From assembly GCF_051903065.1 (NCBI RefSeq), contig NZ_CP178438.1: 64,000 bases of DNA, one strand, 5' to 3'. The position numbers and the translations under genes were made by a program. The notes below the pieces were generated by a model, which was given only the letters and a program-made list of their open reading frames with translations, did not search any database and had not been told where the DNA came from. This DNA comes from Escherichia coli. Lineage in GTDB: Bacteria; Pseudomonadota; Gammaproteobacteria; Enterobacterales; Enterobacteriaceae. Shown piece by piece: positions 17,929 through 21,365 of the stretch; within the stretch, counting starts at the first letter, position 1, and each line of letters begins with the position of its first letter.

Positions 17929-17966
17929 AACCGTAGCACGTCGTATGCAAGATCGTGCTGCGGTTT
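17928..17966. repeat. hairpin-forming repeat A (13-bp arms, 13-nt loop), probable terminator-like element
   Basis: AAACCGTAGCACG-N13-CGTGCTGCGGTTT directly after invertase stop; imperfect direct copy at 18947-18983. Confidence 0.5.
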
Positions 17967-17985
17967 ATGCTTATCACTTAAAGAC

Positions 17986-18759
17986 TCAAAAATTAGGTGA
18001 GTAACGGACCGGGGACATAGCTCCTTTTTTTCTTAATTCATCTGGTATTTTTTTTCCAAGATAAAGATTTGCTATTTCAGGTGGGGCTTCTCGGCCTTCA
18101 AAACCATAGCGAGAACTTTGTGTTGCCTCAAAGTCAGGATCCTCGTCCCAGTATTTCATCGTAGGGAAATTTTCACGTGTTGATTTGAGCCATTTATCAG
18201 CAATGAAAACCCCCCGAACGATTCCCCTTACAGTAGCAAGAATAACTTCTGCTTGGCTGGCGCGAGAGACATTAATGCGCCAGCTAAATCGAACCGCATC
18301 ATAAAGCTCTGAATCCTTTGCACTTCTGTTAACGGAAATCATTAATGCTTTATGATGAAATGTTATGGTTTCGGGTTGATATGTTGCTATCAACTCTTTG
18401 ACATGCGCGGCGCCGAATTCATTGCTGCCAGCACCATTCATGATATTCGTTAACCCAGGGTAGGCATCAATAAGTGCAGCTTCAACTTCGTACGCCGTCT
18501 TTTCATCAGTCATTCCGTGTCGATGGATGACATGGATAACTTCAAGTCCTGCTAACCTTATTTCTCTAATTTGCTTTAGCTTGTTGCTCAGTAACTCGTC
18601 ATCATCAGTCGCTGCCACTTCACCGCGCATATGGGCAAATACGCGGTTACCTTTGCCTTTCCCTACATAGAAGGTGCTTCCGTCCCTCGGATCAATCAAT
18701 CGGTATACATACCAGCCAAGGTGTTCAATTACTCCAGAAGGAAACTCAGTAATATCCAT
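17986..18759 (-). CDS. GIY-YIG nuclease-domain protein (about 257 aa) with uncharacterised C-terminal domain
   Basis: N-terminus contains WYVYRL...[14 protein letters not shown] (GIY/YIG, Arg, His) then Glu and Asn about 50-65 residues later; ATG at 18759 chosen over upstream TTG. Confidence 0.6.
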
Positions 18760-18946
18760 TTTGCAATATCTATGAATTATTTGTGAGACGTATATTAATG
18801 AACATTGCAAGGGCTCACAACCAGTAGTGTTGAGAAAACTATCGGGTAAATGAGGCTAATCCTTTGAATTTACATAGTAAAAAAGATACTTTTCCTCATA
18901 GTGTGAGCTAATTTTATGTTTCGTTTGATGATCGGACCGGTCTCAA

Positions 18947-18983
18947 AAACCGCAGGCACGTTGTATGCAAGAACGTGCTGTGG
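18947..18983. repeat. repeat B, degenerate copy of repeat A
   Basis: AAACCGCAGGCACGTTGTATGCAAGAACGTGCTGTGG; about 36 of 41 positions match repeat A by hand alignment. Confidence 0.45.
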
Positions 18984-19318
18984 CTGGCTGGTGAACTTCC
19001 AATAGTGCGAATATTGAATGATTTCTATCTGTTATAGATTTTACCGTATTTCGGCATGAATGAAACTGAATATCCTCCCACCGATTCTCCATGACTTTAC
19101 GCCACTGTCTCTAGGGCTGCTATGTGCCAGAGGCGGACGTTGTTAAAATAGAAAATATCCCAACCTTGTATGAGTCGTGCAATAATTTCGAACTTTATAC
19201 AAAGCTTTGGTTGTAAAGGTGTATAACCACAAGTGACATTAATCACATTTGTAAAGGCAAAATGCAACAAACTGAATTAGTTAATTGCGTAAATTTGAAG
19301 TTATGTTAAGGTGGTGAT

Positions 19319-19451
19319 GGTTTATGGGCAGATTTTGGGTCGCGTTTCGCGATCAGTGAAAAAAATGTCCGATAGGATTGCCTTTCAGGATCTCATGTTC
19401 CTCGCATTTCTTAAGGTTCTTGTCAAGTTTGCGTAAGAGTGCCCATAAACC
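19319..19451 (+). ncRNA. candidate retron msr/msd non-coding RNA bounded by a1/a2 inverted repeats
   Basis: Perfect 12-bp inverted repeat GGTTTATGGGCA (19319-19330) / TGCCCATAAACC (19440-19451), the latter 19 nt upstream of the RT start; internal hairpin TCGCG-TTT-CGCGA at 19340-19352. Confidence 0.4.
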
Positions 19452-19470
19452 CTTTTAGAGGCGATCTAAA

Positions 19471-21306
19471 GTGAAACGACTACAATCATTAAAAGAAGCA
19501 AAAACAAAACCAGACTTGGCTAAGCTATTAGGAATCAAACCTTCAGCGTTAACATACTGCCTATATGTATTAAAACCTGAAAATCAATACACACAGTTTA
19601 AGATACCAAAAAAAAATGGCGGCGAACGGATAATAAGTGCACCTAACGGAATATTAAAGACGATACAGTCATCCTTATCAAGACTGCTTCTAGATTGCTT
19701 AGACGAAATAGTTTGCATTAAGTTTCCAGACTCAGAGTTAGCAAGGCAGAAAGCAAAAAACTCAAAAATATTAAAGTTAAAATGTTCCAACTCAGAAATC
19801 AAACAACCCTCACTGTCTCATGGATTTGAAAGAAAGCGTTCAATTATTACAAATGCAATGATGCACTTGGGGAAAAAATATGTTTTTAATATAGACTTGG
19901 ATAATTTTTTCGGCAGTTTTAACTTTGGTAGAGTCCGAGGTTTTTTCATAAAAAATAGAAACTTTGCACTCGATCCGGAAATCGCAACTGTAATTGCTAA
20001 AATTGCGTGCTACAACAATGAACTACCCCAAGGCAGCCCATGCTCCCCAGTAATCACTAATCTAATCACTCACTCGTTAGACATTAAACTGGCAGCGATT
20101 GCATCAAGAAACTCATCCACTTTTACAAGATATGCTGATGATATTACATTCTCTACGAGGAAGGGGGAGTTTCCTTCTGCTATAGCAAAAAATCAAAATG
20201 GTAAATATATCGTTAGTAAGAAAATTAGGGGCGAGATAACTCGCTCAGGTTTTATAATTAATGATGGGAAGACAAGAAATCAGTATAAAGACTCGAGGCA
20301 AGATGTAACAGGCTTAGTGGTTAATAAAAAGCCAAACACGAAAAAAGAATATTGGAGGCTTGTGCGTGCGCAATGTGACCATTTATTTAAACATGGTGAG
20401 TTCTTAGAGGTGATTGACGGCAAGGAAATAAAGGGGAATGTTAATAGCCTTGCAGGCAAACTTAACTTCATAGACCAAGTTGACCACTATAATAGATTGC
20501 GTCAAGGCGAAAAATTAAATCCAAAATATCACTTAAAAAAAGATGCCAATAAAAATGGCCATGCCAAAAAAAGGCGTTACTTACATAGTTCTAGAGAAAA
20601 AACGTTTAGTGAGTTTCTCTTCTATCGTTTATTTTATGGCAATGAATTACCAACAATTCTTACGGAAGGTAAAACTGACAATATTTATCTGAAGGCAGCA
20701 ATACATAAGTTAGCCTCATCATTCCCTAATTTGGCGGTCGCTGAAAGTCCAGGGCTCTCTTATAAGCCACGGACTAAATTTGTTAACTACAATGAGCGGA
20801 CAAAATATTTACTTGAACTTTATGGTGGTGCTGATTATTTAAAGGATTTTGTTATTCATTATAAACAACACTTTAATCGTTATAAGGCTCCCAAACCATC
20901 TAATCCAGTAATTATACTTGTTGATAATGATAGCGGACCAAAAGATCTGATTAATTACGTTAGTAAAGTTGATAATATTGGTATTTTCCCCACAGGTGTT
21001 CCAGATATCCGCGCCTCTGAGTTTGTACATATTTTTTGTAATCTTTATTTAGTGCTTACCCCTCAAGTTAAGGGATATACAGGAACTGATATAGAGCATT
21101 TTTTTAAAGATACAGATCGACTTAGACCACATAAAGGTAAGTTTTTCAATACAGTCTCTAAGCGTGATCATGATAATGATTTGAGCAAGGAATCTTTCGC
21201 AACTCATATTGTTCATGCCCACAAGCATGAAATTGATTTTAGTGGATTTACAAGCCTGTTAGAACGGTTAGTAAAAGTCATAAATCACTTTGACACTGTT
21301 AAGTAA
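19471..21306 (+). CDS. retron-type reverse transcriptase fused to a C-terminal Toprim domain (Retron-Eco2/Ec67-like architecture)
   Basis: 611 aa; NAMMH (NAxxH) at about 128-132, motif A NIDLDNFF, QGSPCSP, YADD at 221-224, VTG at 279-281; C-terminal TEGKTD and DND motifs suggestive of Toprim; GTG start after AGAGG. Confidence 0.8.
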   Translation: MKRLQSLKEAKTKPDLAKLLGIKPSALTYCLYVLKPENQYTQFKIPKKNGGERIISAPNGILKTIQSSLSRLLLDCLDEIVCIKFPDSELARQKAKNSKILKLKCSNSEIKQPSLSHGFERKRSIITNAMMHLGKKYVFNIDLDNFFGSFNFGRVRGFFIKNRNFALDPEIATVIAKIACYNNELPQGSPCSPVITNLITHSLDIKLAAIASRNSSTFTRYADDITFSTRKGEFPSAIAKNQNGKYIVSKKIRGEITRSGFIINDGKTRNQYKDSRQDVTGLVVNKKPNTKKEYWRLVRAQCDHLFKHGEFLEVIDGKEIKGNVNSLAGKLNFIDQVDHYNRLRQGEKLNPKYHLKKDANKNGHAKKRRYLHSSREKTFSEFLFYRLFYGNELPTILTEGKTDNIYLKAAIHKLASSFPNLAVAESPGLSYKPRTKFVNYNERTKYLLELYGGADYLKDFVIHYKQHFNRYKAPKPSNPVIILVDNDSGPKDLINYVSKVDNIGIFPTGVPDIRASEFVHIFCNLYLVLTPQVKGYTGTDIEHFFKDTDRLRPHKGKFFNTVSKRDHDNDLSKESFATHIVHAHKHEIDFSGFTSLLERLVKVINHFDTVK

Positions 21307-21365
21307 TATTATGATGCGCACTGATTATTCCTTATTCAGCTAAAATTTCTGGTAATGACTCCAAC

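Follow-up and report, generated by a model that had tools for sequence, protein, structure and literature searches.

Do two divergent genes at the end of a prophage, one for a GIY-YIG nuclease and one for a retron reverse transcriptase (RT), work together as a single anti-phage system, or are they independent cargo? The question is raised by a 64,000-nucleotide stretch of an Escherichia coli chromosome (from contig NZ_CP178438.1; hereafter the window). From the start of the window to ~17.9 kb it holds the late region of a prophage that is e14-like and has a sheathed tail of the contractile type; its genes include those for terminase, portal, capsid, sheath, tube, baseplate, ymfQ, tail fibre, tail-fibre assembly and the invertase pinE. 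At this tail-fibre end of the prophage, an island (17929-21350) lies between pinE and a copy of the insertion sequence IS1, beyond which follow betA and betB. The island carries the GIY-YIG gene (gene 1) on the minus strand and the RT gene, with a C-terminal Toprim domain (gene 2), on the plus strand, with a shared intergenic region of ~0.7 kb. A first-pass annotation, made from the letters alone, had correctly placed the island between the tail-fibre invertase and IS1, had read it as candidate anti-phage cargo and had left room for a retron with a GIY-YIG accessory partner. Our analysis indicates that the island very probably consists of two autonomous anti-phage systems, each encoded by a single gene, stacked in the variable post-pinE slot of e14-like prophages; the genes are neighbours because both cassettes land in the same prophage hotspot, and not because one needs the other. 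It is defence cargo of known kinds and not a new retron-nuclease partnership.

The AT-richness that had been visible at first reading was borne out, as the GC content of the island (0.379) is the minimum among all 3,422-bp windows in the 64 kb (mean 0.522, standard deviation 0.047). For comparison, the values are 0.554 for the phage structural genes, 0.496 for pin, 0.534 for IS1 and 0.578 for betA-betB. The island is 100% identical in strain 23CRST027, from which the RefSeq annotation for the whole setting was taken.

The GIY-YIG gene matches a characterised type IV nuclease

The product of gene 1 matches the PADLOC model PD-T4-3 (PDLC04031) with E = 2.7e-140 over profile positions 1-255 of 256, and its N-terminal GIY-YIG domain is recognised by Pfam (LEM-3_GIY-YIG, 4e-14). 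It is 98% identical to CMoRE of E. coli O157:H7 (PDB 9U75/9U8D, E = 2e-172) and about 88% identical to CMoRE of APEC O1 (PDB 9U7U, E = 6e-151). The listed open reading frame (17986-18810, 274 aa) opens at an upstream TTG; the annotated and crystallised protein begins at the ATG at 18759, and a 774-nt coding sequence is annotated for CMoRE in RefSeq genomes. Four substitutions (T51A, E55D, Q169K and N197H) separate the protein from the O157:H7 enzyme, none of them at a residue named as functional. The GIYxY-YIG tyrosines Y17, Y19 and Y31 are all present, as is Y127, the contact to 5-hydroxymethylcytosine (5hmC); the C-terminal domain equals that of 9U75 except for Q169K and N197H, and the acidic loop is D52-D53-D54-E55, compared with DDDD in the O157:H7 enzyme. 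Together with 196 bp of upstream sequence, gene 1 is about 96-97% identical to the loci of EDL933 (L006) and WCHEC025943 (L007), and this homology stops at 18955. PD-T4-3 reportedly came from the selection of Vassallo et al. in 2022.

What such a gene can do alone has been established for its relatives from O157:H7 and APEC O1. Liu et al. (2026, PMC12923530) describe an enzyme that degrades specifically DNA containing 5hmC or its glucosylated form (5ghmC) and that combines a GIYxY-YIG motif (Y17, Y19, Y31), a four-residue acidic inhibitory loop and a C-terminal 5hmC pocket (Y127). In the same study, the single CMoRE gene under its native promoter lowers the plating of T2, T4 and T6 by about 10^5 without abortive infection, and the O157:H7 gene is active from its native promoter. 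PD-T4-3 by itself restricts Tevenvirinae both in K-12 and in its native clinical host, and some Tevenvirinae evade it (PMC12409345). Judged by its sequence, gene 1 is PD-T4-3/CMoRE, and its product would be a type IV nuclease cutting the 5hmC/5ghmC DNA of T-even phages. It belongs to the same family as the proteins in 9U75 and 9U7U and is essentially the same protein, of 257 aa, in a post-pinE position in an e14-like element as in EDL933; it differs in the four substitutions and in the retron cassette that stands here on the promoter side of the gene.

The RT gene matches type I-C retrons with a fused effector

Gene 2 scores 741.9 bits against the NCBIfam model NF038237 (retron_Ec67_fus; cut-off 450) and matches PADLOC RT-Toprim_I-C with E = 4e-222. 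Its RT is matched by Pfam RVT_1; the Toprim domain was not called by Pfam and was recognised through the PADLOC model and the Ec67 structures. The protein aligns to the cryogenic electron microscopy chains of Retron Ec67 (PDB 9LM3/9I2F) with E = 6e-137 and 42% identity over 608 aligned positions. The YADD motif (residues 221-224) aligns to the Ec67 YADD at 199-202, and F43 aligns with Ec67 F46. In the Toprim domain, E399/D403 correspond to E374/D378 of Ec67, D485/D487 to D460/D462, D540/E542 to S513/E515 and K573 to K562. In Ec67, both defence and RNase activity are lost when these Toprim residues are mutated (PMC12405507, PMC12916289). The YADD motif, F43 and the listed Toprim residues are intact in gene 2 and invariant in 25 members of its clade (from Xenorhabdus, Yersinia, Serratia, Enterobacter, Vibrio, Aeromonas, Shewanella and others).

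The combination of EGxxD (motif IV) and DxD (motif V) is the signature of variants I-C1 and I-C3 (Mestre et al. 2020, PMC7736814); because gene 2 has DxD and not DxE, variant I-C2 is excluded. On these alignments gene 2 is the RT-Toprim of a type I-C (Ec67/Eco2 family) retron. In retrons of this type the effector is fused to the RT and no partner is needed (PMC7736814, PMC12916289, PMC12405507), and Mestre et al. give no accessory gene for type I-C and do not refer to GIY-YIG at all (PMC7736814). The initial identification of two divergent genes, a GIY-YIG nuclease and a retron RT with a C-terminal Toprim domain, was therefore correct for both genes (PADLOC, Pfam, PDB and NCBIfam), and the anti-phage reading was right as well, since by its sequence matches each gene belongs to a published single-gene defence system.

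With Retron-Eco2 (Ec67, type I-C1; PDB 9I2F, 9LM3), gene 2 shares the single-gene RT-Toprim architecture, the YADD, EGxxD and DxD motifs and the residence in a prophage. Apart from the moderate identity, it differs in having D540 in place of Ec67 S513 and in its setting, which is an e14-like or lambdoid prophage compared with a P2-like one for Ec67. It also has a lysine-rich insertion of 25 residues (about 86-110; 19726-19800) in the N-terminal part of the RT, which is missing in Ec67 and conserved in the gene 2 clade, with P86, S88 and Q112 around it invariant. This clade is widespread (Yersinia, Serratia, Vibrio, Aeromonas, Shewanella and Pseudomonas). A literature search found no experimental work on it, and a tblastn search of the RT against a phage collection turned up nothing close in isolated phages, where the top full-length match was 36% identical. 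Elsewhere in E. coli, the RT is split by a frameshift in PK8276 (L004, 6172-8006) and is annotated as N-terminally shortened in elppa6 (L089, 5652-7382), which suggests, from sequence, occasional decay of the retron.

A conserved and covarying non-coding RNA precedes the RT gene

A perfect 12-nt inverted repeat (a1/a2) delimits a non-coding RNA (ncRNA) of the msr-msd kind that ends 19 nt upstream of the GTG start of gene 2. Rfam had no retron msr family either in 17000-22500 at a permissive threshold or in the whole window at the gathering threshold, and returned only a sub-threshold CssrB hairpin and repetitive extragenic palindromic (REP) elements; because no Rfam model matches, the ncRNA was defined by comparison. 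In addition, the minimum free energy fold of 19310-19470 was barely better than that of shuffled sequences (z = -1.9), and covariation was needed because such folding alone is no evidence.

For this comparison, 79 loci with RT-Toprim relatives were fetched from other species and 70 upstream regions were examined. The same layout was found in about 60 of the 70, in the order a1, an invariant G followed by AUUUU, a short hairpin, AGUGAAAAAAAUG, a variable segment, GCGUAAGAG and a2. In an alignment of 49 of these sequences, standard pairs occupied 99.8% of the cells, compared with 31-37% when the partner columns were slid; compensatory double changes occurred at 17 of the 18 pairs, and no shuffle reached the observed covariation. 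The a1/a2 helix (helix 1) is biased in this respect, as its ends were found by a pairing-based rule; the msr hairpin (helix 2) was not chosen in that way, and five of its six pairs show compensatory changes, with 99.3% of cells paired.

The comparison also allows the ends of the multicopy single-stranded DNA (msDNA) to be predicted. In the Eco2 structure, the branch is at rG15, synthesis starts with dT1 and termination occurs at rG52 after rA49-rA50-rU51 (PMC12405507; PMC12916289). The A-G-A around G19331 is invariant in all 49 sequences, and G19331 matches rG15 of Ec67 within the conserved GGCA-G-AUUU block (ncRNA alignment; PMC12405507), from which we infer a branch point at G19331. The start context is GCGUAAGA-G-UGCC here and GCGAAGGA-G-UGCC in Ec67, with the first DNA base (dT) presumably templated by A19438; the last base would be templated by G19367, with the stop at the G after AAU (Ec67 rA49-rA50-rU51-rG52). 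The predicted msDNA is 72 nt long (5'-TCTTACGC...ATCGGAC-3', with 16 dC), a length that could be off by a few nucleotides. As in Eco2, the ncRNA lies directly upstream of the RT gene and presents in the same order a1, the GGCA-G-AUUU branch, one msr hairpin, the CAGUG...AAUG stop, GCG-A-GA-G and a2; it differs in its predicted msDNA of about 72 nt, which is unrelated in sequence. A single msr hairpin has likewise been described for the Ec67 ncRNA (PMC12405507).

The Ec67 loci used in this comparison were located with a 67-nt query that we take to be the Ec67 msDNA sequence. It was found at 100% identity in 14 genomes, beside genes annotated as retron Ec67 family. Ec67 proper (L087, 4189-6129) lies in a P2-like prophage, flanked by the genes for a portal protein and a DinI-like protein and not far from a Dam methylase; the RefSeq start of its RT coding sequence overruns the msd region and is probably over-extended.

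The two genes are distributed independently

As an alternative to two separate systems, the genes could form a genuine two-component system, with the GIY-YIG protein serving the retron as accessory effector or as regulator. The divergent arrangement around a shared 0.7-kb intergenic region would suit such a system, as would an adjacency that recurs in eight genomes, above chance. The distribution of the genes speaks against it. In a survey of 5,426 complete E. coli genomes, CMoRE was present in 821, in 813 of them without the retron. The retron was present in 18 genomes, plus one fragment, and lacked an adjacent CMoRE in 10 of the 18. The two were adjacent in eight genomes, all in e14-like prophages or their remnants. 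In nine of the ten retron-only records the whole-island query had a single matching place, and there is therefore no CMoRE elsewhere on those records. Furthermore, tblastn with CMoRE, the GmrSD-like mREase_IV and McrA found no homologue within 5 kb of the 79 RT-Toprim loci of other species. Each gene thus occurs far more often without the other, and the consistent co-occurrence across lineages that would mark a retron type with a GIY-YIG accessory effector was not found (8/18 retron genomes, 8/821 CMoRE genomes and 0/79 loci elsewhere). As the retron also has its own fused effector, relatives of CMoRE are fully active alone and the cassette boundaries described below separate the genes, we regard a two-component system as highly improbable and largely refuted by the distribution.

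Examination of related prophages for co-occurrence had been proposed in the first-pass annotation as a means of checking joint action. Each gene was found alone in unrelated contexts, which largely goes against joint action, yet the two are adjacent in the eight genomes mentioned above. A retron with a GIY-YIG accessory partner is not supported, since both systems function singly in published work and their distributions are independent.

Independent modules in a single hotspot account for these data, and the neighbourhoods of the retron point in the same direction. The retron cassette has three different left neighbours, with varying right neighbours. It follows pinE and CMoRE in eight genomes. 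It follows a truncated pin and a 629-aa DUF262 protein, a full-length match to PADLOC mREase_IV and thus a GmrSD-like type IV enzyme, in four genomes by junction grouping (18977), two of which were inspected (L002, 3485-5374, and L004, 3485-5374). In a further six genomes (two records inspected) it stands alone in a lambdoid prophage resembling Qin/Rac, with a DUF977 gene on one side and hokD on the other. From the other side, the slot right after pinE or its remnant holds a type IV modification-dependent nuclease in every inspected context, whether McrA, CMoRE or a GmrSD-like enzyme.

The first reading had compared the island with mcrA next to pin in e14 and with the variable locus after the tail-fibre genes of P2-like phages. 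The former comparison holds, as pinE of K-12 is followed by mcrA in the same slot (L091, 5347-6180); the latter is loose, the prophage here being e14-like and not P2-like. The K-12 e14 element thus shares with the present one the prophage family and the slot, with a type IV modification-dependent nuclease directly after the invertase at the prophage end. It differs in that McrA is an HNH enzyme encoded on the same strand as pin, whereas here a GIY-YIG enzyme is encoded on the opposite strand and is accompanied by the retron cassette.

In strain A30 (L005, 6396-8918), CMoRE is followed, beside tRNA-Phe, by genes for a hypothetical protein of 461 aa and for a protein of 292 aa whose annotation is restriction endonuclease. 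These genes may represent additional, so far uncharacterised cargo of the hotspot. PADLOC had no model for the 461-aa and 292-aa proteins of L005 or for a 285-aa protein of L002, which are encoded after CMoRE or the retron at those loci.

Repeated hairpins and a mobile cassette mark the module boundaries

The two modules meet at break points at about 18952-18955 and 19119. Just past the stop codon of pinE, and likewise downstream of that of CMoRE, hairpin 1 (Table 1) folds with -23.6 kcal/mol on the plus strand (z = -5.7) and -17.4 kcal/mol on the minus strand (z = -4.4), and is probably a two-way terminator. It matches the 3' hairpin of Rfam CssrB (Shigella sRNA B) below threshold, and homology with pin-less contexts begins at its first base, 17928. 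A second, 89% identical copy (hairpin 2) stands at the junction of CMoRE and the retron. The 25-nt core (GCACGTYGTATGCAAGAWCGTGCTG) of the two hairpins, at 17936-17960 and 18956-18980, occurs exactly twice in the window (none expected) and forms a direct repeat bracketing CMoRE. Loci with CMoRE only (CP-933H of EDL933 and others) stop at 18955 or 19142, and loci with mREase_IV and the retron start at 18952; on this sequence evidence, the junction at 18952-18955 on hairpin 2 looks like a seam of cassette exchange.

The retron itself lies within a mobile cassette, whose copies in the 18 E. coli genomes share at least 99.5% identity. The cassette common to L002 and L003 (5820-8081) is 99.6% identical between unrelated flanks and corresponds to the window from 19119 to about 21380. 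Inspection of these two ends revealed no terminal repeats or target duplications. An open reading frame of 57 aa on the minus strand (19097-19270) was considered as a third gene of the island and rejected, as the cassette of the lambdoid context starts inside it at 19119 and it is annotated in no RefSeq genome.

The right end of the island has been remodelled by IS1, which lies 44 bp past the RT stop. Compared with L088 and L002, the retron cassette lacks its last ~30 bp and the prophage its whole distal end. No 9-bp target duplication was found at the ends of IS1 (left flank AAAATTTCT, right flank CCCTTTTCG). An IS1-mediated deletion, as judged from the sequence, has probably joined the prophage to the betA side. 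One or both genes might then be inactive relics in a decaying prophage whose distal end IS1 deleted. The absence of a target duplication where IS1 abuts the cassette, with the loss just described, would fit such decay, and so would the frameshifted or shortened RT of some other genomes and the mild toxicity of Eco2 expression, which would favour silencing. On the other side, both open reading frames are full length here, the catalytic residues and the ncRNA are all intact, and the retron coding sequence together with 350 bp upstream shares at least 99.5% identity with its counterparts in 17 further genomes. We therefore consider it quite unlikely that either gene is a relic.

Table 1. Features of the island and its borders in the window.
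Feature	Position	Strand	Remarks
pinE	17338-17928		Left bound of the island
Hairpin 1	17928-17966	Not assigned	Left module boundary
CMoRE/PD-T4-3 gene (gene 1)	17986-18759	Minus	257 aa; PADLOC, PDB and Pfam matches
CMoRE upstream (native promoter) region	18760-18955	Minus	Part of the CMoRE module
Hairpin 2	18944-18985	Not assigned	89% identical copy of hairpin 1; CMoRE/retron junction
Mobile retron cassette	19119-21350	Plus	2,262 bp elsewhere; last ~30 bp cut by IS1 here
Retron ncRNA (msr-msd)	19319-19451	Plus	133 nt; inverted repeats, covariation, Ec67 block homology
a1 inverted repeat (GGTTTATGGGCA)	19319-19330	Plus	12/12 pairs covary, none broken
Predicted branching guanosine	19331	Plus	ncRNA position 13; would supply the priming 2'-OH for msDNA synthesis
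msr stem-loop, single	19338-19354	Plus	6-7 bp stem, UUU loop
Predicted msd template	19367-19438	Plus	Ends placed by Ec67 homology
a2 inverted repeat (TGCCCATAAACC)	19440-19451	Plus	12/12 complementary to a1
RT-Toprim fusion gene (gene 2)	19471-21306	Plus	611 aa, GTG start; type I-C RT with fused Toprim, the predicted RNase effector
RT catalytic motif YADD, codons	20131-20142	Plus	Residues 221-224; aligned to Ec67 YADD 199-202
Toprim effector domain	20638-21303	Plus	About residues 390-611; E399-G-K-T-D403 (EGxxD), D485-N-D487 (DxD), D540/E542, K573
IS1	21351-22118	Minus	768 bp; terminal repeats read directly; bounds the island, outside the defence systems

Elsewhere in the window, the tail-fibre and assembly segment 15392-17312 is flipped relative to the otherwise 99.9% identical locus of 23CRST027 (L001, 17464-19384); it is a Pin-type invertible segment caught in the opposite orientation. 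Arrays of REP elements (bacterial interspersed mosaic elements) lie at 36636-36983 (minus), 47643-47807 (plus) and 52675-53126 (plus), with four, two and five copies, respectively, and match Rfam naRNA4 (CssrE) above the gathering score.

Discussion

The identities of the two genes suggest how each system would work on its own. By near-identity to the characterised enzyme, CMoRE would be a tetrameric, auto-inhibited GIY-YIG nuclease; its C-terminal domain would recognise 5-hydroxymethyl- or glucosyl-hydroxymethyl-cytosine, after which incoming T-even DNA would be cut, and the resulting immunity would be direct and non-abortive. The RT domain of gene 2 would reverse-transcribe the ncRNA 19319-19451 from the 2'-OH of G19331, and the branched msDNA so formed would be about 72 nt long. 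If the Eco2 model (PMC12916289, PMC12405507) applies, three RT-Toprim/msDNA units come together as a trimer whose msDNA keeps the Toprim nuclease caged. A DNA endonuclease encoded by the phage (the dC-specific DenB of T-even phages or A1 of T5-like phages) would nick the msDNA, which would then decay, and the freed Toprim would nick tRNA acceptor stems and shut down translation. For the gene 2 retron, msDNA production and ends, trimeric caging, trigger and RNA target are all carried over in this scheme by homology.

Several observations weigh against the reading of the island as two autonomous systems of these kinds, or against parts of it. Adjacency in E. coli exceeds random expectation, with eight cases observed and 2.7 expected (Fisher one-sided p = 0.003), although this count is inflated by the shared descent of one prophage family; we attribute the enrichment to shared descent together with the shared hotspot. 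A consensus scan found no sigma-70 promoter before the ncRNA; over promoters and terminators, the scan returned five promoter-like sites, compared with 11 expected. With IS1 in place, a stretch downstream of the RT has been lost that other copies conserve and that may include a terminator. Finally, gene 2 is only 42% identical to Eco2, has the clade-specific insertion of 25 residues in the RT and has a different msd sequence; therefore, its trigger, oligomeric state and RNA target could differ. The gene 2 clade, with its RT insertion and msDNA of about 72 nt, might have a trigger or an assembly other than those of Eco2.

The proposed mechanisms also raise the possibility of a layered defence without coupling, in which the type IV nuclease and the I-C retron would close each other's T-even escape routes without physical interaction and would together give more than additive protection or fewer escapers. 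The two could be complementary layers because CMoRE attacks hydroxymethylcytosine (hmC) DNA and Eco2 is triggered by an endonuclease of hmC phages. A type IV modification-dependent nuclease is indeed the immediate left neighbour in 12 of the 18 retron genomes (CMoRE in eight, mREase_IV in four), and the pair was found at four or more chromosomal sites (five loci inspected). Escape mutants of Eco2 map to denB, and such mutants would stay hmC-modified; conversely, there are the Tevenvirinae that evade PD-T4-3. These points are offset by the fact that the post-pinE slot has a type IV enzyme regardless of the retron (McrA in K-12; CMoRE without the retron in 813 genomes). In addition, the cassette stands alone in six lambdoid contexts, none of the 79 loci of other species has a CMoRE, GmrSD-like or McrA homologue within 5 kb, the DenB trigger for the gene 2 clade rests on analogy with Eco2, and co-location in one prophage lineage is explained by descent. 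Layered defence is thus rather unlikely, and it would be compatible with two autonomous systems as an added selective rationale. An extended form, in which the post-pinE slot always holds a type IV nuclease and a subset of prophages recruits a DenB-sensing I-C retron to build a synergistic two-layer trap for hmC phages with orthogonal escape, appears unlikely as well, and slightly more so.

The reading of the island as a stack of two autonomous defence systems brings little conceptual change, as PADLOC finds both genes, the NCBI annotation names the retron, and the mechanisms of the nearest relatives were solved in 2025-2026. It removes a tempting false lead, the GIY-YIG-partnered retron. In addition, it provides base-level coordinates and a covariation-backed ncRNA model for a large I-C clade beyond Rfam, which may be of use in retron editing and in studies of retron triggers. 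More generally, the island shows in compact form how cassettes are exchanged at a repeated hairpin within a defence hotspot of prophages, in which type IV nucleases swap and a 2.26-kb retron cassette moves between unrelated prophages.

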